IMG/VR virus record: IMGVR_UViG_3300025000_000057
Length of the DNA: 64,000 nucleotides
Origin: a virus
Taxonomy: Duplodnaviria; Caudoviricetes
Reading direction: 5' to 3' (one strand)
Both the position numbers and the translations under genes were made by a program. Under the pieces are notes generated by a model, which saw only the letters and a list, made by a program, of their open reading frames with translations, was not told the DNA's origin and made no database searches. Positions 1 to 14,241 of the stretch are shown one piece after another; the first letter of the stretch is position 1; the number at the start of each line of letters is the position of its first letter.

Positions 1-2507
1 TTAACACGATGCATTGCTTGCCGTATAGTCAGGAGATTTGGATATACGATACTGTCGAAGAAGAACTCTTACAGATAGCTATTGGCAAATTGGCTGAAAT
101 CTTTGAACCCAATCGGTATCAAACTATCAGTCTTAACCATGTGACTGGTAAGGCAGAGATGAAGTATATTACAAGTGTCAGTAAGAAAGATAATAACCGT
201 AGACTTATTACTCTTATTGACAATGAAGGTAGGAAAAATACTACTACCGATAATCATGTTACTATGTGTATGGATGACTACGGTAATGTAACTGGCAGGT
301 TCCCAGAAACATTGAATCATGTTTTATCTCCAAGAGGTATCGATCTCCCACCGGTTAGAGGCGATATCGGTTTAGATCATTATCATTCACGAAAAGTTCA
401 AAACTACTTAGATGATCATATTGTAGTAACTATGGAGTTTGCCAAGATAGCTGGTTATTATGTGGCTGAAGGTAGTGTAGTAGGAGGATCTCAACTCTGC
501 TTTACAGTATGTTCTACTAATAAAGAAGATGAGTTAATCTCTCTTATGCAGCAATGTTATGGAGAGAATATTACTTATAATCGTTATCCTACACCTATCG
601 GTAAACCGAAGGATATACGGTTTAATGTAGGTAAGGTATGGGCCGATATGTTTAAAGACAAGTTCGGCTATGACGCTTATACTAAACATATTCCTGTAGA
701 GATCTTGTTTGCAGAAGATGAAGTACTTATATCATTCCTTAATGGGTACTTCAAATGTGACGGTAGTATTAAAGAGAACTATATTATAGCTACCACTGTA
801 AGTAAGAGATTACGCAATGAGTTAAATCTCATGCTTTTAAGGTTGCGTGAGCTTCCTCATATAGCCGAGAGAACTACCAGTTCGAATTACGGTACATCAC
901 TCAATTATGAGATATCTATTAGTGGAATTGCGGAGAATAGATTAGGATTAGAGTTTGGTTGTAAGGTTATGTATGAACAAAAGCATTACGACTACGAATT
1001 TCTGAAATCTCTAATCAAAGAAAACAATAAGCTAATCCAGTATAAGAAGATTAAGCCCCATGAAATAGATATATATGCTATGACAGACAAACGACTCGGG
1101 GCCGCTACTAACGTATTCCCCGTTTCTATTAATCAATGTCTTGAGTCTAACAGTGGTGATGAATACGTCTACGATTTATCTGTAGAAGATAATGAAACAT
1201 TCTTGACAGCCGAGTGTATCTTCGTTCATAACAGCAGGGGAGGGGGGCAGATCCCTTTCTCTTCTATCAACATAGGTAATGTGCAAAGTCCCGATGCTGC
1301 TAAGATCTGTGAATGGTTCTTAAGAGCTTTTAAAGCCGGTTTAGGGAATGGCGAGCAACCGATATTTCCTAACGTTTGCTTTAAGATTAAGAGCGGCGTT
1401 AATATGCATAAGTCGGATCCGTACTATCACCTATTTCGTTTGGCACAGGAAGTTTCAGCTAAACGGCTCAATCCTAGTTGGGTATTCTGCGACAGTAGTT
1501 TTAATAAAGACGGAGATATCTCTTATATGGGTTGTCGTACCCGTGTAGTAGCCGACCGTCATGGAGAATCTACTACAATTGAGAGAGGAAACGTAGGGTT
1601 TACCACAGAGAATTTACCCAGACTAGCTATAAAGGCTATGTTAAAGCATCCTGATGATACAGATGCCAGGTTAAGTTACTTCTTTGAATTGCATAATGAA
1701 GTATTAAACCTTATAGTACGGCAGCTCATGCATCGTTTTGAATATATATGTACATTAAAGGCTAAAGACTTTCCTTTCCTAATTGGTCAAGACTTATACA
1801 GGGATGCTGACAAATTAAATCCAGAAGATAGTATCTATCTAGCTGCTAGGCATGGTACACTTACACTAGGCTTTATTGGTTTAGCTGAATGTTTGAAAGT
1901 ACTTGTAGGTAAGTATCATGCTGAAAGTACAAATGCACTGGCCCTGGGTCATAAAATTATATCTTATATTCGCAAGATAGCCGATGAAGCATGCGAGAAA
2001 TACGACCTTAACTTCTCTGTTATTGCTACTCCGGCAGAAGGTTTATCGGGTAGGTTTACCAAACTTGACCGTGAAGAGTTTGGGACAATTCCCGGAGCGA
2101 CTGATAAGAAATACTATACAAACAGTTATCATGTACCGGTTGATTATCCTATTAGCTATTATGATAAAATAGCAATAGAGGGGCCATTCCATAAATATTG
2201 CAATGGTGGCCACATGAGTTACATTGAATTCGAAAGTATGCCGCAACACAATATCGATGCTATTGAGAATATAGTATTACACATGGCCGCTTGCGATATG
2301 GGTTACGCTGCTGTTAATTATCCAGTAGATTTGTGCAAGTCCTGTGGTACTCATAATAATATAATACCACATGGAGAACCCTGTCCTGTATGTGGAGAAA
2401 GAGATAAGATAGATAGGATTCGCAGAATAACAGGGTACATTTCAACACTTGAGCGCTTCAATGACGCAAAAGTAGCGGAAGAGACAGATCGCATACCTCA
2501 TGTGTGA
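1..2507 (+). CDS. nrdD: Class III anaerobic ribonucleoside-triphosphate reductase, intein-containing; 5' end lies outside the window
   Basis: Frame is open from the window edge (N-T-M-H at 3-14). Spliced junction reads NTMH/SRGGGQIPFSSINIG as in NrdD. YMGCR active-site motif, CKSC..CPVC zinc site and C-terminal RRITGY glycyl-radical motif are present. Confidence 0.96.
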   Translation, partial: NTMHCLPYSQEIWIYDTVEEELLQIAIGKLAEIFEPNRYQTISLNHVTGKAEMKYITSVSKKDNNRRLITLIDNEGRKNTTTDNHVTMCMDDYGNVTGRFPETLNHVLSPRGIDLPPVRGDIGLDHYHSRKVQNYLDDHIVVTMEFAKIAGYYVAEGSVVGGSQLCFTVCSTNKEDELISLMQQCYGENITYNRYPTPIGKPKDIRFNVGKVWADMFKDKFGYDAYTKHIPVEILFAEDEVLISFLNGYFKCDGSIKENYIIATTVSKRLRNELNLMLLRLRELPHIAERTTSSNYGTSLNYEISISGIAENRLGLEFGCKVMYEQKHYDYEFLKSLIKENNKLIQYKKIKPHEIDIYAMTDKRLGAATNVFPVSINQCLESNSGDEYVYDLSVEDNETFLTAECIFVHNSRGGGQIPFSSINIGNVQSPDAAKICEWFLRAFKAGLGNGEQPIFPNVCFKIKSGVNMHKSDPYYHLFRLAQEVSAKRLNPSWVFCDSSFNKDGDISYMGCRTRVVADRHGESTTIERGNVGFTTENLPRLAIKAMLKHPDDTDARLSYFFELHNEVLNLIVRQLMHRFEYICTLKAKDFPFLIGQDLYRDADKLNPEDSIYLAARHGTLTLGFIGLAECLKVLVGKYHAESTNALALGHKIISYIRKIADEACEKYDLNFSVIATPAEGLSGRFTKLDREEFGTIPGATDKKYYTNSYHVPVDYPISYYDKIAIEGPFHKYCNGGHMSYIEFESMPQHNIDAIENIVLHMAACDMGYAAVNYPVDLCKSCGTHNNIIPHGEPCPVCGERDKIDRIRRITGYISTLERFNDAKVAEETDRIPHV
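15..1232 (+). mobile_element. Intein (406 aa) with LAGLIDADG homing endonuclease domain, in nrdD
   Basis: Starts with Cys (CLPYSQEIW), block B TTTDNH, LAGLIDADG-like IAGYYVAEGS and FLNGYFKCDGS, block F VYDLSVEDNETF, ends VHN followed by +1 Ser. Confidence 0.95.
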
Positions 2508-2757
2508 AAATAATACATGCTCTAATCAGGACACCGTGCTAGACTCGAACGAGTATGAAGTACGTGTAATGGGTTTGGATAGGTGTTGTAAGAGTTGGAA
2601 GTTAAATCCCAAGAAGATATTAAAAGATAGTAAAGGTAGAATAGTACCTCAATATACTAATGCTATAATAGCAAATTGCGGTACTTGTCTTTATTACCCT
2701 ATCCTTACTACCGTGATGAACTTGAAGTATATAAGTGAAATGGGTATTGACATGTAG
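2500..2757 (+). CDS. Hypothetical protein (85 aa, Cys-containing)
   Basis: ORF overlapping the nrdD stop; no family recognised. Confidence 0.6.
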   Translation: MCENNTCSNQDTVLDSNEYEVRVMGLDRCCKSWKLNPKKILKDSKGRIVPQYTNAIIANCGTCLYYPILTTVMNLKYISEMGIDM

Positions 2758-2775
2758 CATGTAACATGGTATCAT
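2747..2775 (+). promoter_or_regulatory. Sigma-A-type promoter with extended -10
   Basis: TTGACA (2747-2752), 17-bp spacer ending TGG, TATCAT (2770-2775), upstream of GAGGTG SD and the 2795 ORF. Confidence 0.75.
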
Positions 2776-2794
2776 CTCTTCATGAGGTGGTACC

Positions 2795-3136
2795 ATGAAA
2801 GCTATGACACGTCATAATCGTACAGACATGATGGTTGAGATTGAAATTCTCAAGTTCGGAATGTACGAATCGTTAGTAAAGTATCCCGGAATGTTAGACC
2901 CTGAAGGTAGGGGTTATCGAGAGATTAATACATTCCACATATATGTACTTGATCATCAAGCAATGTTATTACACAATAAAGCATTAAAGAAACTTCAGGC
3001 TGCTGGCGAGGAACTAAGAACTGTTAGTAAGGGACTCAAAGGTATATACTCTCACCTATTGGAAGAATGTCGTGACTTACCTCAACCGATAGAGTCAGAC
3101 CTTGAACCTCCAGAAGATCCTCCGCCGCCAGAGTAA
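2795..3136 (+). CDS. Hypothetical protein (113 aa)
   Basis: ATG preceded by GAGGTG SD. Confidence 0.8.
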   Translation: MKAMTRHNRTDMMVEIEILKFGMYESLVKYPGMLDPEGRGYREINTFHIYVLDHQAMLLHNKALKKLQAAGEELRTVSKGLKGIYSHLLEECRDLPQPIESDLEPPEDPPPPE

Positions 3137-3149
3137 AGTTGGTGATACG

Positions 3150-3455
3150 ATGAGTTTTGCCAATCTTCTTAAAGAAGATATAATCGAATTTAAGACCCGA
3201 GTAAGGAATTCTTTTAGCAATAACCAATGCTCAGGTTATAGCGGGTTGTGCATAGTAGATGAAAACGGTAAAGAGCTTAAAAATAGCGTAGATTACATTA
3301 TAGATGGCGGTATTTTAACAGTAAAAGAGCATATCAATCCTATCGGTCTTATGATGCATGCTAGACTCGCACCTATGCCTCTTGAGAAACCTAGCTATGA
3401 AAAGTTTACATCTAACAATCCTGTAAAATGGTATAATAAACGACGCAGGAAGTGA
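3150..3455 (+). CDS. Hypothetical protein (101 aa)
   Basis: Start moved to the ATG at 3150 behind a GGTGA SD; the track start at 3102 overlaps the previous gene. Confidence 0.75.
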   Translation: MSFANLLKEDIIEFKTRVRNSFSNNQCSGYSGLCIVDENGKELKNSVDYIIDGGILTVKEHINPIGLMMHARLAPMPLEKPSYEKFTSNNPVKWYNKRRRK

Positions 3456-3460
3456 TTAGT

Positions 3461-3706
3461 ATGAATGATACAAATAAAGTTCAGGACTTAAAGAGCATCC
3501 CTGACGTTGAAATCGAGAAAAGATTTAGCTATCATCCTCCTACGGAAGAGCAGCCTCAGAAGTATGAGGAGATTCGCGGTATGGGTAAGGCTTTCGCAGA
3601 ACTTATCAATGAATTATGTCCTGACAGCATGGATAAACGCGAAGCTATAAAGAAGATTGAAGAGGCTGTATTCTGGGCCAATGCTTCAATAGCTCGTTAT
3701 AGTTAA
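3461..3706 (+). CDS. Acb2/Tad1-hairpin-like small protein, putative anti-defence nucleotide sponge
   Basis: RFSYHPP..Q..KYEEIR..GKAFAELINELCPDS.DKREAIKKIEEAVFWANASIAR resembles, from recall, small phage proteins annotated as Acb2/Tad1 domain. ATG at 3461 after AGGAAGTGA. Confidence 0.55.
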   Translation: MNDTNKVQDLKSIPDVEIEKRFSYHPPTEEQPQKYEEIRGMGKAFAELINELCPDSMDKREAIKKIEEAVFWANASIARYS

Positions 3707-3720
3707 GGAATGTCGAAGAT

Positions 3721-3886
3721 GTTAATAGGTAGTGGGCTATACCGAAGGCTAAGGTATACACTGGGATATATTATACATGGCGTATAAGGTGTGGTATATC
3801 TCAATTCCAGAAGTCAACACTGTGTAATTCTACTGCAGGGGATTACTAAATCATGAGAGACTGCAATCTCTCATCTACCTATTAGC
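3721..3886 (+). ncRNA. Candidate structured ncRNA, multibranch fold closed by a 12-bp helix; family unknown
   Basis: 3721-3732 pairs with 3875-3886; four internal hairpins; no ORF. Confidence 0.5.
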
Positions 3887-3895
3887 TTTTAATAA

Positions 3896-3977
3896 TGGAT
3901 GTTGGCAGATGTCCAGTGCTCACAAACAATGTCCAGTGTGCCGGAGGGTGCAATCCAAGACTGGCACACTGGATGAC
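3896..3977 (+). ncRNA. Duplicated two-hairpin RNA motif, copy 1
   Basis: 82 nt, homologous to 4678-4759 with compensatory stem changes; ends 2 nt before tRNA-Asn. Confidence 0.6.
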
Positions 3978-3979
3978 AC

Positions 3980-4054
3980 AGGGATATAGTTCAATGGTAG
4001 AACGGCGGACTGTTAATCCGTATGTTGCTGGTTCGAATCCAGCTTTCCCTGCCA
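3980..4054 (+). tRNA. trnN: tRNA-Asn (GUU)
   Basis: Cloverleaf, anticodon loop CTGTTAA, T-loop TTCGAAT, encoded CCA. Confidence 0.95.
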
Positions 4055-4056
4055 AT

Positions 4057-4170
4057 GTGGCAGCTGCAAGCGGCGCTGCTTCTTGTTCGGATAGATTCTC
4101 TAGTTTATTTATTAAAGTGGACTAGAGAATCTATCCTCAAGAAGTACACGTAGTCCACTAAATTGCAGCA
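4057..4170 (+). ncRNA. Duplicated pseudoknot RNA motif, copy 1
   Basis: Conserved 20-nt 5' block and 27-nt 3' block shared with 5696-5821, around a long variable hairpin. Confidence 0.7.
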
Positions 4171-4173
4171 CAT

Positions 4174-4251
4174 GTCGGTGTAGTCCAATTGGCAGAGACA
4201 TACGGTTTAAGCCCGTACCAGTGATGGGTTCAAGTCCCTCCACCGATACCA
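4174..4251 (+). tRNA. trnL: tRNA-Leu (UAA), short variable loop
   Basis: Cloverleaf, anticodon loop TTTAAGC, A73, CCA; no long variable arm; T-stem has a bulge or mismatch. Confidence 0.85.
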
Positions 4252-4272
4252 ATAATATAAGGTGATGATATA

Positions 4273-4425
4273 ATGTCTAAGAAATCATGTTCAACTTGTT
4301 TGTATGGAAATTGCGATATAGAATTTTATGAATTAATTCCATGCATAGAATGTAATGAATTATTATTTTGGGAATTTAAAGACTTAAGTTTCTTAGATAT
4401 TGTAATACACTTTATAAATATGTAG
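4273..4425 (+). CDS. Small Cys-rich hypothetical protein (50 aa)
   Basis: AAGGTGA SD and ATG; MSKKSCSTCLYGNC...CIEC; below the ORF-track cutoff. Confidence 0.5.
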   Translation: MSKKSCSTCLYGNCDIEFYELIPCIECNELLFWEFKDLSFLDIVIHFINM

Positions 4426-4501
4426 GGGTGTAGCTAAGTTGGTCTAAGGCATACGGTTTTGATCCGTACATTCGTAGGTTCGAATCCTACTTCCCCTTCC
4501 A
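4424..4501 (+). tRNA. trnQ: tRNA-Gln (UUG)
   Basis: Cloverleaf, anticodon loop TTTTGAT, T-loop TTCGAAT, CCA. Confidence 0.9.
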
Positions 4502-4504
4502 TAA

Positions 4505-4577
4505 CGACGCTGAGTAGAGGTAGCTTGTCAGGTTCATACCCTGAAGGTCGTGGGTTCGAATCCCTCCCCTGAAACCG
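4505..4577 (+). pseudogene. Degenerate initiator-like tRNA-Met (CAU)
   Basis: Anticodon arm TCAGG-TTCATAC-CCTGA and T-arm are intact, but the acceptor strands do not pair and the end is CCG, not CCA. Confidence 0.55.
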
Positions 4578-4584
4578 TTATCAT

Positions 4585-4670
4585 GGAAGAGTGCCCGAGT
4601 GGTTAATGGGAGCAGACTGTAAATCTGCCGTGTAACAACTTCGTAGGTTCAAATCCTACCTCTTCCACCA
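4585..4670 (+). tRNA. trnY: tRNA-Tyr (GUA)
   Basis: Cloverleaf with long variable region, loop CTGTAAA, CCA. Confidence 0.95.
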
Positions 4671-4677
4671 TAAGTAT

Positions 4678-4759
4678 TAGAGTTGGCATATCTCTAGAGC
4701 TCACATACAATATTCAGTGTGCCCAATGGAACCCACTTAAGACTGGCACACTGAATGAC
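4678..4759 (+). ncRNA. Duplicated two-hairpin RNA motif, copy 2
   Basis: 82 nt, homologous to 3896-3977; 12-bp stem 4712-4723/4745-4756; ends 1 nt before tRNA-Ser. Confidence 0.6.
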
Positions 4760-4760
4760 T

Positions 4761-4845
4761 GGAAGGTTGACAGAGCGGTAATGTGCTTGATTGCTAATCA
4801 AAGGCCAGGGTAACACCTGCATAGGTTCAAATCCTATACCTTCCG
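4761..4845 (+). tRNA. trnS: tRNA-Ser (GCU), CCA not encoded
   Basis: Acceptor GGAAGGT/ACCTTCC, G73, loop TTGCTAA, long variable arm. Confidence 0.9.
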
Positions 4846-5308
4846 CTCTAAACTAATTGGTGGTGATTATTATTTCTAATAAATATAAAAAGATTAGAAT
4901 AAACAAAAATACCACCAATAACGAACATAGATTAGTTATGGAAGCAAAACTTGGTAGAGAGTTACTTAGTTCTGAAATTGTTCATCACAAAGATGAATGT
5001 AAAGGAAATAATGAACCTAGTAATTTAGAATTGACCACAAGAAAAGAACATAGTAGATTACATATGCTTGGTAAGAAATTACCCGAATCAACTAGAGAAA
5101 AGATGAGAAATAGACCTAGTATAAAGGGTTCTAATCATGTTAATGCAAAACTTAATGAAAAACAGGTTGTATATATTAGATGTTTACTTAGTAATGGCTA
5201 TGGTATTAGAGAATTAGGAAGATTATTTGAAATACATCACAGTGTAATATCTGATATAAAGAATCGTTTAATATGGAAACATGTATTATAAGGGCCTATA
5301 CCTTCCGC
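4833..5308 (+). repeat. 14-bp direct repeat (CCTATACCTTCCGC) flanking the HNH gene
   Basis: Copies at 4833-4846 (3' end of tRNA-Ser) and 5295-5308, the second followed by CA to give CCA. Confidence 0.85.
4857..5291 (+). CDS. HNH homing endonuclease with C-terminal HTH-like region
   Basis: EHRLVMEAKLGREL...IVHHKD..K.NN...NLEL...EHSRLH HNH motif; start codon uncertain (TTG 4857 or ATT near 4872). Confidence 0.9.
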   Translation: MVVIIISNKYKKIRINKNTTNNEHRLVMEAKLGRELLSSEIVHHKDECKGNNEPSNLELTTRKEHSRLHMLGKKLPESTREKMRNRPSIKGSNHVNAKLNEKQVVYIRCLLSNGYGIRELGRLFEIHHSVISDIKNRLIWKHVL

Positions 5309-5450
5309 CATTTATGGAATCATGGAGAGTCGCAATTTATAAGTCGATTCTCCCTCTGTCTCCGCCAGTATTAAATTGTAGACGGTTGATATTTTAATGG
5401 CTTTAGCATACCGGAACAATTAACTAAGCGAATAAAAGCCATTGCATTAC

Positions 5451-5535
5451 GGAGGGTAGGCCAACGGTGGTAAGCTGTCTTGAAAACAGTCGAGGTGTAA
5501 AAGCCTAGCGGGTTCGACTCCTGTACCCTCCGCCA
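5451..5535 (+). tRNA. trnS: tRNA-Ser (UGA)
   Basis: Acceptor GGAGGGT/ACCCTCC, G73, loop CTTGAAA, long variable arm, CCA. Confidence 0.9.
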
Positions 5536-5599
5536 GGGATAACTGCTGATCCCAACCACTTTATCATGTGCTCAAGGAGTTGCGACCCTTGGGCCTCCT

Positions 5600-5676
5600 C
5601 GGGATGTAGCTTAGTTTGGTAAGGCGCCTACTTTAGGAGCAGGTAACTGGGAGTTCAAATCTCTCCACCCAGACCA
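5600..5676 (+). tRNA. tRNA with UAG (Leu) anticodon on a tRNA-Pro-like body
   Basis: Loop TTTAGGA; closely similar to tRNA-Pro at 6921; two acceptor-stem mismatches; CCA. Confidence 0.75.
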
Positions 5677-5695
5677 GAGGGCTTCACGCCCTGTA

Positions 5696-5821
5696 GTGGC
5701 AGCTGCAAACGGCGCGACTTTAACCAGTGATATAACTCCATAAGCTGATGTAATATATCTGCTAATATGGGTAAAGGATCTATCACGGATTAAGGTACAC
5801 GTAGTCCACTAAATTGCAGCA
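5696..5821 (+). ncRNA. Duplicated pseudoknot RNA motif, copy 2
   Basis: 19/20 and 27/27 identity to the end blocks of 4057-4170; different internal hairpin. Confidence 0.7.
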
Positions 5822-5825
5822 TTAT

Positions 5826-5901
5826 CGCAGGTTGGAGCAATTGGAAGCTCGTCAGTTTCATAAACTGGAGGTTGCCGGTTCGAGTCCGGCACTCGCAACC
5901 A
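5826..5901 (+). tRNA. trnfM: tRNA-Met (CAU), initiator-like
   Basis: C1:A72 mismatch, loop TTCATAA, CCA; lacks the three consecutive G-C anticodon-stem pairs. Confidence 0.8.
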
Positions 5902-5913
5902 AACATTAAAGGA

Positions 5914-6216
5914 GTGATATTTATAGATACAAATAAATTTATATTTCATGTATGTACGTTTCCAGATGAACCAGATTTAATTGTAGTTACGATCAATACT
6001 AAAGAATGTTGGAATAATTATCATTATCTTACTGATAGTTATACCAAAGAAGAGTGGGATATACTTAATCCCATATTAGATGAACTTTCTTTAGTAAGTT
6101 TAGCGGATTCTTCTTTTGAATCTATGATTGATAGAGACATACCCACTCTTGTAAAATTACTTATTTCTAAAGGTTTAGAGCAAGATTCTGAGTTTAGTAA
6201 CTGGATGGAGATCTAA
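5914..6216 (+). CDS. Hypothetical protein (about 97-100 aa)
   Basis: AAAGGAGTGA SD at about 5908-5917; likely start ATA 5923. The track start at 5872 lies inside a tRNA. Confidence 0.6.
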   Translation: MIFIDTNKFIFHVCTFPDEPDLIVVTINTKECWNNYHYLTDSYTKEEWDILNPILDELSLVSLADSSFESMIDRDIPTLVKLLISKGLEQDSEFSNWMEI

Positions 6217-6247
6217 AGATGAGTAATAGGTTGTAACCGATCATCTT

Positions 6248-6328
6248 CCGGGTGTAGCCCAATTGGTAGAGACATACGGTTTAAGCCCGTACCAGTGATT
6301 TAGGGTTCGAATCTCTCCATCCCGACCA
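6248..6328 (+). tRNA. trnL: Second tRNA-Leu (UAA), short variable loop, partly degenerate
   Basis: Anticodon arm identical to 4174 copy; weak T-stem; 3' acceptor strand CATCCCG-A-CCA identical to tRNA-Pro. Confidence 0.65.
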
Positions 6329-6702
6329 AAAATTAATTTAGGTGATGATTTAATGAACTTTAAGGAGTGAATAATATATTCGCAAAAAGTCATTATAATT
6401 GTTCTAATAATAGTAGTGAATTAGATGGTGTATATGTATTTGTTATGTCTGGCATTGAAAAAGATATGCTCGAAGAGGCTATAGGAAATGTAAATTTCGT
6501 TCCTAAAGATGTTTAGATAGGATTTGTAATTTAAAATCTATCGGTAAAGCATTTAGAAGAATCAATAACCCGATAGAATGTAATATTTCATATACGAAAG
6601 CACTTTTACAATTATTATTACAGTTGGAAGGAATTAAAGATGACAATTAAAAGAAAATTAGTATTTGTTATAACAATGGAATTTGATATGAAACTTATTT
6701 AA

Positions 6703-6777
6703 GGGCCTTTAGCTCAATGGTAGAGCATCCGGCTCATAACCGGTTGGTTGGGAGTTCGAATCTCTTAGGGCCCACCA
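6703..6777 (+). tRNA. tRNA-Ile2-like (CAU; lysidine type)
   Basis: Cloverleaf, loop CTCATAA, GGGCCTT acceptor resembling bacterial Ile2 tRNAs, CCA; elongator Met not excluded. Confidence 0.8.
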
Positions 6778-6920
6778 GAGCCTTATTAATAAGGCAGGAT
6801 TGACTACACCTTGAAGTAGTTGGGTTTCGGGCTGTACCCGGCATCGATAAGTATGTCAAAACAGTACTAACTTAGTGCTTCGACACTTTGACCGGGTCTT
6901 CCTATCTCCCCGGTCATTGT

Positions 6921-6997
6921 CGGGATGTGGCCTAGCTTGGTAAGGCGCCTGTTTTGGGAACAGGAAATCGGGGGTTCAAATCCCTCCATCCCGACCA
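6921..6997 (+). tRNA. trnP: tRNA-Pro (UGG)
   Basis: C1-G72, A73, loop TTTGGGA, CCA. Confidence 0.95.
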
Positions 6998-7063
6998 TAA
7001 TAATCTTTTATCCAAGACTGTAGTATTTTACTATAGTCTTTATTTTATAAAGGAGGTGATACT

Positions 7064-7486
7064 ATGAAATGGGTACCAGGCCCTGTTATGCAAGACTGGC
7101 TATTTGCTCTAACATTAAAAGAGCAGACAGTTCTTTTACTAAGTCTAAGGGGGTCGGATATAGGAGCTACAGTAGAGGTTAAATCATTAACCAGGTGGAT
7201 ACGTTCTATCGTTTTAAGAAATGCGGCACCGGATAAGACATTCATGAAACGTACTTATTTTGGTAGGATAATAGATATGGCAGAGGCTAATCCTCCTGCA
7301 TTTGATATGTTATCTGTACACGTATTCGGTCATCTGATGCATGCATTTGAAATAATAGGGTACAAGCACCCGGATACCGTCGTCCGGGCAAAGGCATTAC
7401 AAGCATATTTAGATCTTTGCGAGTACATGCATGTTAATCCGGAAACCGAAGTAGAGATGTCCGCTAGACTAAGTGACGAGGTGTAA
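7064..7486 (+). CDS. Hypothetical phage protein (140 aa)
   Basis: AAAGGAGGTGA SD and ATG. Confidence 0.85.
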   Translation: MKWVPGPVMQDWLFALTLKEQTVLLLSLRGSDIGATVEVKSLTRWIRSIVLRNAAPDKTFMKRTYFGRIIDMAEANPPAFDMLSVHVFGHLMHAFEIIGYKHPDTVVRAKALQAYLDLCEYMHVNPETEVEMSARLSDEV

Positions 7487-7490
7487 TAAC

Positions 7491-7784
7491 ATGAGAGATA
7501 TAAAGGAAATAGAAGAGGACATAAGAAGTAGGCAACAATGTATTAATAAATTAAATAAAGAAATCATCGTATTTCAAAGAGAACTTCTTGAGACTAAGAC
7601 AGGTTTTAAACCTGATGATATAGTAGAAGATCGCGAAGGACGTCGTGGCGCTCTTTGTCATTGCGAAGGTTACACTCCTTCTTCTTGGTATTGGAGGAGA
7701 TTTAAAAAGGACGGAACCCTTTATAAATCTGTCGAGTATCTACCTCCGAATGTAATCTTGATAGAAAAGAAAGGACGAGAGTAG
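7491..7784 (+). CDS. Hypothetical protein (97 aa)
   Basis: ATG at 7491 behind GAGGTG. Confidence 0.8.
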   Translation: MRDIKEIEEDIRSRQQCINKLNKEIIVFQRELLETKTGFKPDDIVEDREGRRGALCHCEGYTPSSWYWRRFKKDGTLYKSVEYLPPNVILIEKKGRE

Positions 7785-8645
7785 ATGTGTAAACCGTTTA
7801 TCAAATGCTTAGGAGGAAAGGGTAGTATAACAGATGAGTTAATGCAGAGAATGCCTGCAGCGTATAATAGATACGCTGAACCTTTTGTAGGTGGCGGCGC
7901 ATTATACTTTAAACTCCATTCGCTTGGTCTTATGAATGGCAAACATGCTATCTTGATAGATGGTAATAAAGACACCGCTATTTGCTACATGGCTATTAAA
8001 ACGAATCCTGGTGGTGTATTGCAAGAGATAAGGAACCTACTTGCCAGATATCCATTTAACAAGCATCCAGGCGACCATATTACCGAAGGTAACTATTACA
8101 AGGTAAGAGAATTCGATAGAGACTCTGGATGGAATCCCTCGCCAGAGGAACGGGCCGCTCGGTACATATACTTAAATAAGACTTGCTTTAATGGGTTGAG
8201 CCGCTATAATAAAAAGGGGCAATTTAACGCTCCTATAGGTAACTATAAGAATCCAATCATCTACGACTCATTACTCATTACGTCTGTAGCATCTACTCTT
8301 AAAGGACAAGTCATTATCCATGGAGACTTCGAATTGGTAGAGCCGTATATATCAGCAGGAGACTTTATATATTTCGATCCTCCATATAAGCCTATCTCTG
8401 ATACGGCAAAATTCACAGAGTACACAGACAAGGGCTTTCCTGATACAGAGCATATCAGACTTAAGAATCTAATCGATAGACTGACTGCAAAGGATGTCTT
8501 TTGTATGTGCAGTAACTCTGCACATACGGATATAAAAACATTGTTTCAAGGATATAAGATCGATACAGTACACGTACGAAGGAATGTTAACTCTAAAGGT
8601 ACCGGCCGATCTGAAGTTCCTGAATATATAATCATGAATTATTAA
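7785..8645 (+). CDS. dam: Dam-family (D12 class) N6-adenine DNA methyltransferase
   Basis: KPFIKCLGGK, EPFVGGGA (motif I), YLNKTCFNGL.RYNKKGQFNAP, FIYFDPPY (motif IV). Confidence 0.93.
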   Translation: MCKPFIKCLGGKGSITDELMQRMPAAYNRYAEPFVGGGALYFKLHSLGLMNGKHAILIDGNKDTAICYMAIKTNPGGVLQEIRNLLARYPFNKHPGDHITEGNYYKVREFDRDSGWNPSPEERAARYIYLNKTCFNGLSRYNKKGQFNAPIGNYKNPIIYDSLLITSVASTLKGQVIIHGDFELVEPYISAGDFIYFDPPYKPISDTAKFTEYTDKGFPDTEHIRLKNLIDRLTAKDVFCMCSNSAHTDIKTLFQGYKIDTVHVRRNVNSKGTGRSEVPEYIIMNY

Positions 8646-8659
8646 AAAGAGGTGATACT

Positions 8660-8992
8660 ATGATCGAGTACGCTATATTTATATGGACAAGATTTATCGA
8701 TCTTACCTGGTGGCAAATGATTCTATGGATATGTTATCTGTTTTACTTTGGGGTAAGGGCTCGCGATTTCTGGATAGAGACAAGAGAAGGAGGCTTAATA
8801 AAGGGATACAGGCATGTGATGTTTGGATGTGATAAATACTTCAGGGTATATCATATTTTTAGAATCGTATTTGATATACCACCGGCAATTATAGGGTTAT
8901 TCTTTCCTATACTGCGTAAGGTATTCTCGTATAAGATTTATACATTTAAGAATGATCCTAAGAATAACTTCAATAGTAATAGTGATTTATGA
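8660..8992 (+). CDS. Hypothetical membrane protein (110 aa)
   Basis: GAGGTGA SD; two hydrophobic segments. Confidence 0.8.
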   Translation: MIEYAIFIWTRFIDLTWWQMILWICYLFYFGVRARDFWIETREGGLIKGYRHVMFGCDKYFRVYHIFRIVFDIPPAIIGLFFPILRKVFSYKIYTFKNDPKNNFNSNSDL

Positions 8993-9150
8993 ATAATGTA
9001 GTCGATGTGTTTAGAAATCATGAAGGATATTACATTCTTTTCAAGAGTGGTAGACTACGTAAAGCACCTAAATGGTATTACGATAGAGCTGCTGCTCACG
9101 TTAGGGAAAGACTATTTAAGCAGAGAATAAAAAGCGAAAGGAAACGGTGA
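8989..9150 (+). CDS. Small basic hypothetical protein (53 aa)
   Basis: ATGA overlap with previous stop; open to TGA at 9150. Confidence 0.55.
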   Translation: MNNVVDVFRNHEGYYILFKSGRLRKAPKWYYDRAAAHVRERLFKQRIKSERKR

Positions 9151-9172
9151 TACTAACACATGAGTAGCACTT

Positions 9173-9283
9173 ATGAATACTAAGACATGGATTATACTAA
9201 CTGTAATAGCAATTGTAACTGGATTAATAACCGGTTACTATATGTTCGATGATTTTTGGGACAATATTAAAGTTAATGAGTAA
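9173..9283 (+). CDS. Small membrane peptide (36 aa)
   Basis: MNTKTWIILTVIAIVTGLITGYYMF; ends at the terminator. Confidence 0.45.
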   Translation: MNTKTWIILTVIAIVTGLITGYYMFDDFWDNIKVNE

Positions 9284-9310
9284 AGACGGGAGCAATTAAG
9301 CCCCGTCTTT
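9283..9310. terminator. Likely bidirectional terminator at the strand switch
   Basis: AAGACGGG...CCCGTCTT hairpin between converging genes. Confidence 0.65.
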
Positions 9311-10207
9311 CGTATTGAATAACTGTATTTTTCCTTCGGTACTACTCTCGATCCATTCGTCTGTAAATCCATTCTCGTAAGAGGTAAAGAACCAGACTAC
9401 ATTTGTTTCCGCACATAACGCAGAAAGCTCTTCAGTACGTTTCCATGTTGTTGTAGTACATAATACGATCGGGAATTGTAACTCACTGTCTTTCTGCCAA
9501 TGCCGGCTATCAAAATACAATTGATACCTGGCTATTTTCTCCTTCCACTGCTTTAAAGACATCGTTCCTCTATCGTGCTCGTAAAAGAAATGGAACCCAT
9601 CTTCTTTATTAAACCAGTACTGACAATACCCATCCGGCTCTAACCTATAATTAAGTTCATCCATTTCAAACGATACATAATTATGATGCTCTACCTTCCA
9701 CACTCCAGGGAGATGGCCCGCTACCTTAGCGTTATTGACCAGCCATTCTCTGAAGCTATTAATCTCTATAATATGGGCTAAGTAAGGTATTTGTACATCA
9801 TTCCTTTCTTTCTTCCACTTTAATTCTTTCATAGTACATCCCCACCATCCTGCTAGTATCATAGCCCCTATAACATCAAGTGTTACATACTGTGGAGAAC
9901 TCCCCTTATTTAACCCAGGGTCTACAAAGAATCGGTCAATTATATGCCACCGGTAATATTGTTTAAGCCTCCGCCTAGCTATGATGTCTGCGATCTTATT
10001 CGGGTTACCATTAGAGTCTATACCAAAGAATTCACTACCCAGGTGTCTTGGTATCACACATTTGCGGTAATATACCGCCTCCAGAACCTTCAAATCCCGG
10101 GGTTGAAGTACTCGACTTTTTAATAGCTCCTGGTATAGCCTTAAGGGATCCTCTAGGTTTATCCTTTCGTACTTTGATATTTTGCGGTTGCTTTTGAATG
10201 GTAGCAT
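9296..10207 (-). CDS. Replication-relaxation (Replic_Relax) family protein
   Basis: N-terminal wHTH-like RDLKVLEAV...ARRRLKQY, then LAHIIEIN, LEPDGY and FYEHDRGTM motifs. Confidence 0.85.
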   Translation of the reverse strand: MLPFKSNRKISKYERINLEDPLRLYQELLKSRVLQPRDLKVLEAVYYRKCVIPRHLGSEFFGIDSNGNPNKIADIIARRRLKQYYRWHIIDRFFVDPGLNKGSSPQYVTLDVIGAMILAGWWGCTMKELKWKKERNDVQIPYLAHIIEINSFREWLVNNAKVAGHLPGVWKVEHHNYVSFEMDELNYRLEPDGYCQYWFNKEDGFHFFYEHDRGTMSLKQWKEKIARYQLYFDSRHWQKDSELQFPIVLCTTTTWKRTEELSALCAETNVVWFFTSYENGFTDEWIESSTEGKIQLFNTKDGA

Positions 10208-12647
10208 CTGTTACCGTATCCTCCTTGGTAGTCTTGTATCTTGCTTCTATATCTCTAAAGCACTGCATAATTGACACATGATCTCTTGTATGGAGTTTAT
10301 TAATAGTTTCAGTAACCTTTCCGTAATCCTTAAACAGTTTCCAATATAAAGGAGTATAGAAGGTGAAGGGTTCGGGTGATAATTTCTTCATCCTACAAAC
10401 TCCTTCAAGTCCTTCGTTTATATCACAAGTAAAGCTCGTCATATCCTGAGATTCAAAGCCCGGAAACATCTTGGAGATAACCGGGGCCGAAGCGTCTCCA
10501 ATATTCATAGCGACCTGTGTAAATGTATTATCAGCAATAATATCAAATATCCTATCCGGCAACTGGCTTTTAGCCTGGTGAGTTAAGATAAGACCATTAC
10601 CACATTCACGAGCCATAGCTAGGAGTCTTTCAAACTCAACAGGATCTTTAGCAAATTCCTCGAATTCGTCTAGGATAGTAACATGAGTCTCTCTGTCATT
10701 CTCGTGCCGACCATCTTTTAACCTTTTAAAGGTATCTTGCCGTATCATAGTCATTAACATAGTGGCAAAGAGCCTTTGAATTTCAGGAGTATTAGTCCCT
10801 ATATTGAGATTGATTAATACAATCTTCTTCTCATTCATAAATCTCTCCCAATTTAAAACGTTACTTCTTTGAGAGAGCATCATACGAGGTCTAGTACTTT
10901 GCATAATCTTCTCTAACTTATTAATAATCGGCTGAGCATCCGGGTCATCATAAGCATTTTTCTTCCCTACGAACTTCTTCCAGTACTCATAAACTTCTGT
11001 GTACTTCCCCTGTTGGTATAACCTCTCTAGATCTTCTAATCTTCTTCTACGATAATTACTATCAGTAAACATTCGGTATACTTCCATTATGGTACCATTC
11101 TTATCATTGACGGAAACGGCTAACACAGCCTGTCGCAGTACCTTCTGACTTCGAGCTTGAATGGATTTCTCTCCAAAGGCACTAATGAATATATCCACAA
11201 TTAGGTTTGCTAAATCATATGGTGGCATACTTACAGCCATGATATTCATTGGTATAAAGAAATCATCACTAGAGAGGTCTACGTATACGACACGCTCTCT
11301 TTCACTCTTATTTAGATACCCTATAAATCTATCCAAAGTGGTACCCTTAACATCAAAGAATGTAAGTCCGGCTTTTTTAATAACAGCAAGAGCCATGGAT
11401 ATTAACATAGTACTCTTACCAGCACCGGTACCTCCTATAATATAAGCATGTTGTCTTAGCATCTTTACATCTCTAAAGGCAAGCCATTTAGTTCTACCCC
11501 TAAATGTAGAGTATCCAAATGGTATTGCATTATCGTTAATGGCATCCCAGAATGTTTTGTATGTCAGGACTTCTTCTGGAACGGGTAGTTTCTTACTCTT
11601 GAGTCTTTCCACATAGGGTACTCTTTTATCCGGGAAGTGTACAAAATAAGCAAGTTCATTACTTGATAAAAGGTTCTCTGTTACATAAGGAGGTATCTTT
11701 CTTTTACAGAAGTTATCAATCCATTTATTCGTAGGTTTTACCTTATTTACTATAAAGCTATTACCATCACTTATTGTGGCAAAAGCGCTGGCCATAGTAG
11801 ATAAGTTACTCATAGCTACAGCATCGTTACTAGCTATGGCTATAATGCGAATATGGGTATCAAATAGTATCCCGCTGTTAATCTTATCTTTCATCTTTTT
11901 AATATCTATGTTACTGTACTTGGGTGCTGGTATATTCTTAGTACCTAGTATGTAAATTGCATTTCCTAGTGTTAGTATAGGCCCGAATACCTCTGTAATC
12001 ATCTTAAGGTTACTGTTTAATTTAAGAGGTTCGCTATGGGTTTTTGCATAGTTATTGAGATAGAATTTACCTTTCTCAATATATCTACCGGATACCGGTC
12101 TTGTTAAAATCTGTACTATCACCTCGCAACCTGATGCTAAATTTGTACCTGCGGATATTATATTAGTTACAGGGTCTCCAGGCATCTTCTCTCCACGAAT
12201 CATCTCTATATTGAAGATATAGTTCTTTGCTAATTCAAGTTCGATTGCTTTAACCGACCGCCCTTTGAATCTATCCAGAGTTAACGGATCTTTAATAGGT
12301 TTTAACTCAGCAGCTTTATGCACGGCATTTAAGGTTCGCTGCATAGTATTATCCAGTCTACGAGGGTACCATTGAATCATCTTAGCTTTATGCTCTGAGA
12401 AATGGAATTCAGTAGAGAAATGCATTGGCACCTCGCATCTACCAAGTACGCCTAAAGAATCCCAGTAATTCTTTAAGGCTTGCGCCCCTAACTCTGAATT
12501 CCTTTCGACCAATACCTGCCTTGTAACTCCGGTGGTTAATACGTCGTCCATTTGTTTTCCAACCATATAATCTCTGATAGCTTTAATGCCGGCACTGGTA
12601 GTAATAGTTGCTCCTAATACTCCTCCTATGATTAAACTTACTCCCAT
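10035..12647 (-). CDS. VirD4/TraG-like type IV coupling-protein ATPase (870 aa)
   Basis: N-terminal TM helix, HAYIIGGTGAGKST Walker A, FFDVKG, ILDEFEEF Walker B, ARECGNGLILTHQ..SQL. Confidence 0.88.
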   Translation of the reverse strand: MGVSLIIGGVLGATITTSAGIKAIRDYMVGKQMDDVLTTGVTRQVLVERNSELGAQALKNYWDSLGVLGRCEVPMHFSTEFHFSEHKAKMIQWYPRRLDNTMQRTLNAVHKAAELKPIKDPLTLDRFKGRSVKAIELELAKNYIFNIEMIRGEKMPGDPVTNIISAGTNLASGCEVIVQILTRPVSGRYIEKGKFYLNNYAKTHSEPLKLNSNLKMITEVFGPILTLGNAIYILGTKNIPAPKYSNIDIKKMKDKINSGILFDTHIRIIAIASNDAVAMSNLSTMASAFATISDGNSFIVNKVKPTNKWIDNFCKRKIPPYVTENLLSSNELAYFVHFPDKRVPYVERLKSKKLPVPEEVLTYKTFWDAINDNAIPFGYSTFRGRTKWLAFRDVKMLRQHAYIIGGTGAGKSTMLISMALAVIKKAGLTFFDVKGTTLDRFIGYLNKSERERVVYVDLSSDDFFIPMNIMAVSMPPYDLANLIVDIFISAFGEKSIQARSQKVLRQAVLAVSVNDKNGTIMEVYRMFTDSNYRRRRLEDLERLYQQGKYTEVYEYWKKFVGKKNAYDDPDAQPIINKLEKIMQSTRPRMMLSQRSNVLNWERFMNEKKIVLINLNIGTNTPEIQRLFATMLMTMIRQDTFKRLKDGRHENDRETHVTILDEFEEFAKDPVEFERLLAMARECGNGLILTHQAKSQLPDRIFDIIADNTFTQVAMNIGDASAPVISKMFPGFESQDMTSFTCDINEGLEGVCRMKKLSPEPFTFYTPLYWKLFKDYGKVTETINKLHTRDHVSIMQCFRDIEARYKTTKEDTVTDATIQKQPQNIKVRKDKPRGSLKAIPGAIKKSSTSTPGFEGSGGGILPQMCDTKTPG

Positions 12648-13042
12648 TAGTACATCCCCGCAAAGTCCATTACTTTATTAACAACACCTCCAGCTAAGTC
12701 ACAGATAAGTCCTACGCATACCATAGTACCAATAAAGACTAGAAGCCTAGCTACGTTGCCATAACCGATGGTAGAGGCTATGGTAGCAGTAATTCCGCCT
12801 ACAATAGCTATCAAAAGAACCTCTATAATGATAAATCCAGGGCCTCCAATTCCGAAGGTAGCGGCCGCCGCAGCAGCTTTAGTACTACCGCTTATCGCTG
12901 CCATGACAGGTGCCGGTGTTGTTAACTTTACAGCCTCTACAGCTACAAAAGCCATTGCACAGAATCTACGGAGAGATTTAAGCTCTTCAACTTTCTTCAC
13001 GTTGGGTTTAGGCTTTCTCACATTACATACTATCATTCTCAT
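12647..13042 (-). CDS. Membrane protein, SpoIIIAC/AD- or VirB2-pilin-like C-terminal two-TM hairpin
   Basis: ATG at 13042 behind AAAGGAG; signal-like segment plus two TM helices. Confidence 0.7.
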   Translation of the reverse strand: MRMIVCNVRKPKPNVKKVEELKSLRRFCAMAFVAVEAVKLTTPAPVMAAISGSTKAAAAAATFGIGGPGFIIIEVLLIAIVGGITATIASTIGYGNVARLLVFIGTMVCVGLICDLAGGVVNKVMDFAGMY

Positions 13043-13043
13043 A

Positions 13044-13358
13044 TTACAGTCTCCTTTCATTTAAACTCTGTTTTACATACTCTTCTTCCTCACTGTTTTT
13101 AATCATCTGGCCCCATTCATTATGCAGCTCTACTTCTTTAACCTTCCCATCTTTAACGATAGCCCAGAAAATCTCTTTTCCTATACCACCTCTTACAATT
13201 TTCCCACGGTAATCTTCTTGCATAACCTGCACTCTCTTTAGTAAATCTCCATTTCCCTGGCTACTTGCGGGAATCTGACCACTACTAGAGCAGTGAGAGC
13301 CAAGAAAAGCTCCGACCCCTAAGATTACAACACCCTTGATAAGCCATAGCGGAATGAT
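13044..13358 (-). CDS. Small protein with N-terminal hydrophobic anchor; non-canonical start (ATC 13358 or ATT 13355)
   Basis: The track ORF 13044..13232 extends upstream without stop to IIPLWLIKGVVILGVGAFLG, directly after a GGAGGTG SD. Confidence 0.7.
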   Translation of the reverse strand: MIPLWLIKGVVILGVGAFLGSHCSSSGQIPASSQGNGDLLKRVQVMQEDYRGKIVRGGIGKEIFWAIVKDGKVKEVELHNEWGQMIKNSEEEEYVKQSLNERRL

Positions 13359-13406
13359 AAATCAACACCTCCTATAAATATACTATAGGATACCGCTGTT
13401 CTTGCG

Positions 13407-13413
13407 TAGTATG
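13407..13413 (-). promoter_or_regulatory. CATACTA sporulation-sigma-type -10 element upstream of the coupling-protein operon
   Basis: Matches B. subtilis sigma-G -10 consensus CATAHTA; no convincing -35. Confidence 0.35.
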
Positions 13414-13474
13414 AGGAACAGAGGCTACAAGATTAGTAATAACGATGATTGTCAAAACGATAACGATGATACCT

Positions 13475-13693
13475 TTAATTAACGATTTCACTCCCCTTTT
13501 GTTCACCTCTATTTACCTCCTTGATACCTTCTTTAATCTCTTCAACCTCAGCCTGTAGTGCATCTAAGTATATGATTAACCTATTGCCGCTAGTAGCATT
13601 TATCTTGGTAGGTTTGCTACACTCTTCACGAAACTTTCGCATAGTCTTCATAGCCATGTCTAAGTTCTTTTCAAAGCATTGAATATAATCCAT
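13475..13693 (-). CDS. Small coiled-coil hypothetical protein (72 aa)
   Basis: GGAGG SD and ATG. Confidence 0.8.
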   Translation of the reverse strand: MDYIQCFEKNLDMAMKTMRKFREECSKPTKINATSGNRLIIYLDALQAEVEEIKEGIKEVNRGEQKGSEIVN

Positions 13694-13820
13694 TTAGTTA
13701 AACCTCCTATAAGGTATTCGTTAACACATATAAGACAACAACACCGGATTAACTGGCGTCACAAAGATACACTACATCTATTCATAATAAGATCTAGACT
13801 ACCGATACCGGTTTGTTAAT

Positions 13821-13848
13821 ATATATGCTAACATAGGTTTATTTATCT
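13821..13848 (-). promoter_or_regulatory. Possible sigma-E-like promoter
   Basis: AGATAAA-14 bp-CATATAT on the - strand; AT-rich context weakens the call. Confidence 0.3.
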
Positions 13849-14214: not shown

Positions 14215-14241
14215 CTAGCATCACCTCTCCCCCCTTGTCTA

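Follow-up and report, generated by a model that had tools for sequence, protein, structure and literature searches.

Phage tRNA clusters are already known to carry extra RNAs, namely the species 1 and 2 RNAs of T4 and the theta ribozymes; for the T4 pair we know of no established function. Structured spacers have also been described between phage mRNAs, where RNase III sites split the units of a polycistronic transcript: in signals of the T7 R1.1 type and in the early RNA of the Bacillus subtilis phage SP82, several sites of one phage keep common sequence around an internal loop low in an irregular hairpin but vary in its upper stems. Theta ribozymes are placed by phages at tRNA 3′ ends, with the cleavage site (G1) within ±5 nt of the tRNA 3′ end, a variable P4 after the 3′ strand of P1, and a J4/2 that starts with the catalytic C; the tRNAs adjoining them encode CCA in 4.5% of cases (PMC10879173). 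Coremin is a much smaller RNA of 26-27 nt, in which a conserved 10-nt spacer links a 3-bp hairpin carrying a YGAD loop to a second hairpin of 4 bp (PMC6546385).

We analyzed a tRNA array in a window of 64,000 nt (the whole stretch of DNA under study) from a groundwater phage with a 219-kb genome, of which a 137-kb record was available for genome-wide scans. The array contains two copies of an unclassified, folded RNA spacer of about 120 bases, a genuine repeat without a match among known RNA families; what the analysis establishes is this repeat, together with its pattern of conservation, its predicted nested fold and its position. The two copies (PK elements) and their flanking features are as follows.

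3980..4054, plus strand: tRNA-Asn(GUU), CCA encoded, ending 2 nt before copy A
4057..4170, plus strand: PK element copy A, 114 nt (5′ block 4057-4076, variable hairpin 4077-4143, 3′ block 4144-4170), MFE -54.5 kcal/mol, z -8.75
4174..4251, plus strand: tRNA-Leu(UAA), starting 3 nt (CAT) after copy A
5600..5676, plus strand: tRNA-Leu(UAG), CCA encoded, 19 nt upstream of copy B
5677..5695, plus strand: small 5-bp hairpin AGGGC/GCCCU between tRNA-Leu(UAG) and copy B, from the sequence and its fold in context
5696..5821, plus strand: PK element copy B, 126 nt (5′ block 5696-5715, variable hairpin 5716-5794, 3′ block 5795-5821), MFE -36.8, z -3.24
5826..5901, plus strand: tRNA-Met(CAU), starting 4 nt (TTAT) after copy B

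Comparison of the two copies bore out the description in an earlier note on this DNA, made by a model from the letters alone: the 20-nt 5′ blocks are identical at 19 positions and the 27-nt 3′ blocks at all 27, and each copy ends 3-4 nt before a tRNA, the first base upstream of which (-1) is U. The 27-mer GTACACGTAGTCCACTAAATTGCAGCA has two exact matches (4144-4170 and 5795-5821), a count of two being reached in 0 of 100 shuffles, and the 20-mer GTGGCAGCTGCAARCGGCGC likewise has only two (4057-4076 and 5696-5715). Together the ends agree at 46 of 47 positions, as against 82-83% for other duplicated DNA of the same array; by our calculation, one mismatch or fewer in 47 would have a probability of about 0.002 if the copies were as old as those other duplicates. 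The inner segments (67 nt in copy A, 79 nt in copy B), which the note had called unrelated, both fold as hairpins and are not significantly similar (global p~0.11, local p~0.18). A third copy was found neither in the 137-kb record, with up to 3 mismatches allowed, nor in the window by covariance model; no sub-block or 12-mer of the conserved ends has a further occurrence in the 137 kb, and neither hairpin was found elsewhere in the record. Both elements are in sense orientation and confined to tRNA spacers, both have CCCUG a short way upstream, and their conserved blocks hold many short palindromes (CAGCTG, GCGC, GTAC, ACGT).

For each copy, the MFE structure is one long irregular hairpin closed by a helix (b) between the conserved ends, with a second candidate helix (a) crossing it.

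4063..4069 with 4163-4169, plus strand: closing helix b of copy A, GCUGCAA/UUGCAGC, 7 invariant pairs in the MFE folds
5702-5708 with 5814-5820, plus strand: closing helix b of copy B, the same 7 pairs
4057..4060 with 4155-4158, plus strand: candidate pseudoknot helix a of copy A, GUGG/CCAC, duplex energy -5.1 kcal/mol
5696-5699 with 5806-5809, plus strand: candidate pseudoknot helix a of copy B, the same pairing

The strands of the two helices are complementary, cross and are joined by UAAA, just as had been claimed, and an H-type geometry is feasible, since the 7-bp helix would be spanned by an L1 of 2 nt and the 4-bp helix by an A-rich L3 of 4 nt. Helix a is invariant in both copies and thus uninformative as covariation evidence, and the chance probability of its 4 bp in random tail/loop pairs is about 0.06. 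Elsewhere in the predicted helices, every difference between the copies keeps pairing (G.U/A-U twice, U-A/U.G once, C-G/U-A once); the conserved GUAC has a 5′ partner that varies between the copies with pairing kept, and both inner hairpins dock at the same position, C23-G1′. Taken alone, the inner hairpin is very strong in copy A (z -9.1) and modest in copy B (z -2.5). Copy A folds better on the plus, tRNA-sense strand than on the minus strand because of its G.U pairs (-54.5 versus -48.7; hairpin A alone, -35.5 versus -28.8), and its duplex runs to 22 + 9 bp, whereas that of copy B is interrupted. The fold of copy B is marginal (z -3.2) and absent from the MFE structure of the full precursor; elsewhere in the array, spacer structure is unremarkable (z +0.3 to -2.6).

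Searches for relatives were negative throughout. Rfam scans at a permissive E<=10 returned only tRNA and miRNA-hairpin noise, with no family matching the elements; neither the HDV-type covariance model nor the other self-cleaving classes (hammerhead, twister, twister-sister, pistol, hatchet, hairpin, glmS and hovlinc) gave a match on the array or on either copy alone. In IMG/VR, word scans with the 27-mer, a 15-mer, a core whose stem positions were left free, the 5′ block and the gapped block pair gave only chance or coding matches among those listed, with no homolog. The core pattern had no match in JGI metagenomes and no homolog in GTDB genomes (one chance match, in Marinicaulis); the 3′ block had no blastn match among GenBank phages, and covariance model R1 gave only noise on the nearest isolates (0305phi8-36, Moorella MTATph1, WH1 and KLEB27-3). 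Anchoring on neighbouring features fared no better: a tRNA anticodon-arm word led to two unrelated arrays, both lacking spacers; NrdD to a 71% relative with no tRNA array and no other gene in common; the 140-aa downstream protein to homologs without nearby tRNAs; the in-array 100-aa ORF to homologs from the same phage or without nearby tRNAs; and a virion protein to a single 43% relative, with none in IMG/VR. In all public copies of the phage itself (runs and contigs, all of the runs being DNA) the elements are identical, with no strain variation, and the sole variant contig differs at 6072-6082. With two copies in a single genome and no homolog found there is no covariation support, and since relatives in other genomes were not found, neither a pseudoknot nor a ribozyme role can be supported from these sequences.

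The earlier note had reported the order two-hairpin motif, tRNA(s), pseudoknot motif, tRNA twice, which is correct, with an HNH gene and two more tRNAs intervening in the second unit.

3896..3978, plus strand: 'two-hairpin motif' copy A, promoter-like TTGGCA-17-AACAAT (3902-3930), then a leader hairpin
4677..4759, plus strand: 'two-hairpin motif' copy B, promoter-like TTGGCA-17-TACAAT (4683-4711), with a leader hairpin between it and tRNA-Ser(GCU)

With its conserved hexamers, the two-hairpin motif most probably corresponds to a SigA-type promoter that has a 5′ leader hairpin behind it, which in copy A (CCAGUGUGCC/GGCACACUGG) ends 1-2 nt before tRNA-Asn. What had been taken for a duplicated functional unit is better read as two tRNA transcription units.

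Our preferred reading, plausible though held at somewhat less than even confidence, is that the elements act at the RNA level, as spacer modules within polycistronic tRNA precursors. Each would be transcribed together with its flanking tRNAs and fold as a long irregular hairpin whose upper part is free to vary, while the base would form a conserved clamp made of the 7-bp GCUGCAA/UUGCAGC helix, short helices with G.U pairs and a bulge of 8 nt (CCACUAAA); pairing of this bulge with the 5′ GUGG may knot the base. RNase P, cutting 3-4 nt 3′ of the clamp, would release the downstream tRNA, and a host endonuclease, possibly RNase III acting on the >20-bp duplex or else RNase Y/J, would cut between the element and the CCA with which the upstream tRNA ends; the 137 kb yielded no phage RNase III. 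With both termini base-paired, the excised RNA of about 115-130 nt should persist as a stable small RNA, by analogy a counterpart of the T4 species 1 and 2 RNAs. Nine other tRNA junctions of the array lack the element, which is thus not required for processing in general. In favour of this reading we count the near-identical ends around dissimilar interiors, hairpins anchored at one and the same position, differences that keep pairing, the better fold of the tRNA-sense strand, the placement in tRNA spacers only and the T4 precedent; the lack of covariation and the marginal fold of copy B weigh against it.

The strongest competitor, in our view an unlikely one, is that the pair is a functionless leftover of segmental duplication: gene conversion would have homogenised its ends, and something else, such as an unrelated palindromic insertion, would have taken the place of its interior. 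The array does hold several further duplications (tRNA-Leu(UAA) with a small ORF, and tRNA-Leu(UAG)/tRNA-Pro), the shared CCCUG hints at a longer duplicated segment, no homolog turned up in any of the collections searched (the IMG/VR matches listed, JGI metagenomes, GTDB, GenBank phages and the nearest isolates), and recent gene conversion could explain identical ends without function. Such a history must nevertheless account for two different interiors that are both hairpins docked in register on the same nucleotides, with pair-preserving changes, and for ends far better conserved than other duplicates; and neither hairpin occurs elsewhere in the record, unlike a mobile palindrome.

An element acting at the DNA level seems unlikely to us; its blocks would then be protein-binding, promoter or recombination sites around an inverted repeat, for instance a promoter for a phage sigma factor lying in the 3′ block directly ahead of each tRNA, or a site at which tRNA cassettes are gained and lost. 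The short palindromes of the blocks would suit it, as would the TAAATT within a 3′ block that ends 3-4 nt before the tRNA start; the phage encodes its own sigma factor, and the HNH homing endonuclease gene and segmental duplications mark the array as recombinationally active. The blocks have no -35/-10 pair at usable spacing, however, and the absence of their sub-blocks and 12-mers elsewhere in the 137 kb is unusual for, and argues against, a general promoter or operator. Moreover, the G.U pairs make the structure strand-specific, favouring a sense RNA, and the conserved GUAC keeps its pairing despite a varying 5′ partner.

We likewise give little credence to a pair of trans-acting small RNAs with a common scaffold, serving as an anti-defence decoy or sponge or as a coremin/xrRNA-like roadblock that shields the downstream tRNA from RNase J1. 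A conserved scaffold with a variable module, termini that can both be sequestered, and a gene for an Acb2/Tad1-family protein directly upstream of the array are all consistent with such a role, but the variable parts are double-stranded and so would make poor guides, the defining coremin arrangement is absent from both blocks (PMC6546385), and no xrRNA family is among the Rfam matches.

The earlier note had inferred a conserved catalytic or protein-binding core, possibly a new self-cleaving ribozyme class or a tRNA-maturation element: a repeated, structured, sense-oriented element confined to tRNA spacers stands, whereas for catalysis we found no evidence. A new ribozyme class, or a very aberrant HDV-like one, that cuts itself close to or at the 5′ end and thereby matures the 3′ end of the upstream tRNA appears very improbable; its catalytic core would be the conserved ends, and the hairpin would be a dispensable peripheral stem. 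A 47-nt core that does not vary and a peripheral hairpin that does, the feasible H-type geometry, the start of copy A only 2 nt after an encoded CCA, and the precedent of phage ribozymes at tRNA 3′ ends (PMC10879173) speak for it, and the strand order GUGG, GCUGCAA, CCAC, UUGCAGC fits the HDV succession of P1 5′, P2 5′, P1 3′ and P2 3′ strands, though with a helix a of 4 bp that is invariant and within chance. As the note itself conceded, the canonical P3/L3/P1.1 is missing, the interval from the 5′ strand of P2 to the 3′ strand of P1 being a single long rod, which helices c and d form together with the variable hairpin; neither copy has L3/P1.1 partners, the UAAA coming after CCAC. P4 would have to come after the P1 3′ strand, yet the variable hairpin precedes CCAC and is thus on the wrong side; the UAAA joiner offers no catalytic C for the start of J4/2 unless P1 is shortened to 3 bp; and the putative P1 has 4 bp and no G.U, where 6-7 bp with a G.U are expected. 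Neither copy alone matches a ribozyme family even at E<=10, the crossing helix is within chance, and copy B begins 19 nt after the CCA of its tRNA, past a separate hairpin. Both upstream tRNAs encode CCA, as theta-adjacent tRNAs mostly do not (PMC10879173), and no CCA-adding enzyme was found in the 137 kb. Equally improbable, in our estimation, is a conserved 47-nt core that serves as the central catalytic or sensing part of a new small ribozyme, or of a switch binding CCA ends, specific to phage tRNA precursors. The 5′ GUGG would then change partners between the internal CCAC and the CCA with which the upstream tRNA ends, and maturation of the tRNA 3′ end would come about by cleavage that the element performs or licenses; in copy A, the CUGCCA at the 3′ end of tRNA-Asn is complementary to UGGCAG at the element start (6 bp possible).

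Other candidates were rejected: a sigma-54 or ECF-type promoter in the 5′ block, an integron attC-like site, a retron ncRNA, a CRISPR-like repeat, guide-like complementarity of the hairpins, and a tRNA-derived origin of the 3′ block, whose GTAGTCCA match to tRNA-Leu is at chance level.

As far as the available sequences indicate, the element is at present one lineage-restricted pair, a lead rather than a discovery. Should the spacer module prove to be a functional RNA, it would represent a third, unrelated design in phage tRNA clusters, in which an exchangeable hairpin sits on a conserved clamp or knot, and a handle on the processing of CCA-encoding tRNAs in huge phages of anaerobic Firmicutes-like hosts.

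Set against the described systems, the elements come close to the T4 species 1 and 2 RNAs (rnaC, rnaD), which are also two non-tRNA RNAs, of about 120-140 nt, inside a phage tRNA cluster and in the tRNA orientation, with a homing endonuclease gene adjoining; in both cases tRNA processing sites lie on the flanks and release by the tRNA-processing machinery is presumed. The T4 RNAs have tRNA-like 3′ parts (a T-arm in rnaC, CCA in rnaD), whereas the elements have neither T-arm nor CCA; the elements have ends common to both copies, lie between tRNAs rather than at the cluster end, and show no sequence similarity to rnaC or rnaD by eye. Theta ribozymes (Kienbeck et al. 2024, PMC10879173) are likewise small structured RNAs directly 3′ of a phage tRNA and share the crossing order a-b-a′-b′ with an A-rich joiner before the last strand; they differ in a 7-bp P1 rather than one of 4 bp without G.U, in having P3/L3/P1.1 and a P4 after the P1 3′ strand, in the catalytic C of the joiner, and in adjoining tRNAs that mostly lack an encoded CCA; copy B, besides, lies 19 nt from its tRNA. 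Coremin/xrRNA_C (Dilweg et al. 2019, PMC6546385) is pseudoknot-capable and has an A-rich UAAA segment, as do the elements, which are four times longer, are built on one long hairpin and lack the parts that define coremin. With phage RNase III signals, which have about two turns of dsRNA and an internal loop near the cut, the elements share a conserved base and differing upper stems; they lie between tRNAs, not mRNAs, cleavage here is putative, and the 22 + 9 bp of copy A contrast with the interrupted and perhaps too short duplex of copy B.

The PK element, a folded spacer in the tRNA array, is a real repeat, and on re-reading the sequence both copies were found exactly where, and as, the earlier note had described them.

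PK copies and adjoining tRNAs (tRNAs by ARAGORN and Rfam)
2 nt upstream of copy A: tRNA-Asn
4057-4170: PK copy A
3 nt downstream of copy A: tRNA-Leu(UAA)
19 nt upstream of copy B: tRNA-Leu(UAG)
5696-5821: PK copy B
4 nt downstream of copy B: tRNA-Met(CAU)

The 20-mer GTGGCAGCTGCAARCGGCGC of the 5′ block had exactly two matches in the window (4057-4076 and 5696-5715), as did the 27-mer GTACACGTAGTCCACTAAATTGCAGCA of the 3′ block (4144-4170 and 5795-5821), for which none of the shuffled controls reached two. No third copy was found in the 137-kb record containing the window, a search that covered 137 kb of the 219.5-kb genome; a covariance model trained on copies A and B (model R1) returned nothing else in the window. 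The interiors, called unrelated in the earlier note, show no significant similarity (67 nt in A versus 79 nt in B, p ~0.1-0.2 against shuffles), and neither recurs elsewhere in the 137-kb record.

Folded alone, both copies adopt the same nested MFE fold, based on a 7-bp closing helix (GCUGCAA/UUGCAGC) with an 8-nt 3′ bulge, CCACUAAA; above this base come two short helices (R14-U and C-G, then G.U, C-G and G-C) and the variable hairpin, whose basal pairs extend into the conserved GUAC. The copy A fold is exceptional (-54.5 kcal/mol, z -8.75, 22-bp apical duplex); that of copy B is marginal (z -3.24) and gives way to other structures once the full tRNA-PK-tRNA precursor is modelled. Structure in the remaining spacers of the array was not unusual. 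Pairing is kept at all four positions where the copies differ within helices (G.U/A-U twice, U-A/U.G and C-G/U-A once each). Because of G.U pairs, the sense strand of copy A is more stable than the antisense (-54.5 versus -48.7 for the whole copy, -35.5 versus -28.8 for the hairpin alone); the asymmetry in copy B is small for the whole element (-36.8 versus -34.2) and nil for the hairpin (-17.7 versus -17.9). The element probably acts as RNA. At 4049-4063, the tRNA-Asn 3′ end CUGCCA is perfectly complementary to the UGGCAG opening copy A, with a 3-nt loop between, and at copy B CCA and UGG are able to pair across a small hairpin (5677-5695), which may be a CCA-binding feature or coincidence.

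For the proposed crossing of GTGG/CCAC with GCTGCAA/TTGCAGC, the complementarity holds and the geometry is feasible. GUGG (element positions 1-4) is complementary to CCAC in the bulge of both copies, and the candidate would be a classical H-type knot with the long hairpin inserted at the loop 2 site, 2 nt spanning the deep groove of the 7-bp helix and UAAA the shallow groove of the 4-bp helix. The GUGG/CCAC helix itself stays a candidate: it has four base pairs and a duplex energy of only -5.1 kcal/mol, for a 6-nt tail and an 8-nt loop, a run of four Watson-Crick pairs is expected at random in ~6% of cases, and both helices are invariant between the copies, which neither supports nor opposes them.

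A second repeat, the two-hairpin motif (3896-3978 and 4677-4759), stands ahead of tRNAs. Its conserved 5′ half carries TTGGCA-17-AACAAT at 3902-3930 and TTGGCA-17-TACAAT at 4683-4711; the promoter-hexamer scan itself gave no enrichment over shuffles, and the SigA-like reading is made because hexamers and spacing are kept in both copies. The strong second hairpin starts near the expected transcription start and stops 1-2 nt short of the tRNA, and the motif is likely a SigA-type promoter with a 5′ leader hairpin. The duplicated functional unit of the earlier note, in which motif and PK element do occur together twice, would on this reading be two tRNA operons with one PK spacer apiece. The best-supported mechanism, a tentative one, is that the PK element is a structured spacer which RNase P and an endonuclease would cut out, yielding a stable RNA.

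The PK ends are far less diverged than other duplicates of the array and are therefore either constrained or recently homogenised. Identity between array copies is 83% for tRNA-Leu(UAA) with the start of its downstream ORF, 82% between tRNA-Leu(UAG) and tRNA-Pro, and 83% for the two-hairpin motif in its 5′ part; at most one difference in 47 PK end positions has p ~0.002 by our calculation, assuming an age similar to those duplicates. The tRNA-Leu(UAA) duplication (4174-4425 and 6248-6516) includes a ribosome-binding site and a ~50-aa ORF, and its two tRNAs have different T arms. Homogenised ends would suit neutral duplication with conversion, an unlikely account of the copies. A DNA-level site and a trans-acting or roadblock RNA are each somewhat less likely still.

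Word scans found no PK homolog in IMG/VR (among the matches listed, some patterns leaving stems free), JGI metagenomes or GTDB genomes, nor did blastn against GenBank phages. Nothing above noise came from applying model R1 to the four nearest isolates, and protein anchors in or beside the array led only to the same phage, in whose public runs and contigs the PK elements are identical, or to loci without tRNAs. A search of 5.8 billion proteins gave one relative (43%) of a virion protein, and IMG/VR gave none. Another huge phage (L261, a 244-kb contig of JGI 3300001242) has a 38% homolog of the in-array ORF, adjoining RtcB; the ~880-nt stretch upstream of this homolog (L261:4178-5060) holds no called gene, tRNA or model R1 match.

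The phage itself (219.5 kb, GCA_902725955.1), assembled from groundwater and sediment metagenomes, is presumably a member of the Al-Shayeb huge-phage set, and its virion proteins are only ~25-31% identical to those of Bacillus phage 0305phi8-36 and Moorella phage MTATph1. For its intein-containing NrdD, the closest sequences are those of Desulfotomaculia/Peptococcaceae-type Bacillota, so the host is probably an anaerobic Firmicute. This anaerobic ribonucleotide reductase (1121 aa; gene 9-2507, running past the window start) has a LAGLIDADG domain in its intein, and an intein-less 71% relative occurs in another groundwater phage with no other gene in common (16 window ORFs compared, 9-16141).

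All 11 ARAGORN tRNA genes of the 137-kb record lie within a single 3.3-kb array. Directly upstream, an 84-aa ORF (3452-3706) matches phrog_1454 and Pfam Acb2_Tad1_hairpin, an anti-CBASS/anti-Thoeris sponge family. Between tRNA-Gln and tRNA-Tyr, a partial tRNA match (4512-4566; Rfam 36.4 bits, model positions 10-63, CAU-like anticodon loop, no ARAGORN call) could represent a tRNA that is truncated or lacks an arm. An HNH endonuclease ORF (4857-5291) sits between 14-nt direct repeats (4833-4846 and 5295-5308) equal to the tRNA-Ser(GCU) 3′ end, CCTATACCTTCCGC, with CCA following the downstream copy only; the arrangement resembles the insertion of a homing endonuclease that duplicated part of its target. 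Comparison with a second metagenome copy (JGI 3300025154) shows only seven differences, all substitutions within 11 nt (6072-6082) of ORF 5914-6216 and altering five residues of the 100-aa in-array protein; local hypervariability or an assembly artefact could account for them. On the minus strand 2-5 kb from the array (9296-12647), genes for a Replic_Relax-family protein and an 870-aa DUF87/TrwB-like ATPase together resemble a module for DNA transfer or replication.

The PK element is unclassified. Rfam 15 gave only tRNAs in the array at gathering thresholds and only miRNA-like hairpin noise at E<=10 for the array and each PK copy alone (single copies with the laxest filters), so that the check raised earlier turned up no described family matching the element at either setting. 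Like the theta ribozyme (PMC10879173), it adjoins a tRNA and, with the candidate helix counted, has the a-b-a′-b′ strand order; the canonical P3/L3/P1.1 of that description is missing, as previously stated. Its variable hairpin precedes the P1 3′ strand, whereas that of theta comes after; its joiner lacks C, its candidate P1 has 4 bp without G.U, and copy B lies 19 nt away from the tRNA upstream of it. Both tRNAs upstream of the PK copies encode CCA, in contrast to tRNAs adjoining theta ribozymes, from which it is mostly absent (PMC10879173). That the element is a new ribozyme is highly improbable. Nor does the element answer to the definition of coremin (PMC6546385). Although the sequence and tRNA-like 3′ ends of T4 rnaC/rnaD are not found in the PK elements, the setting is common to both.
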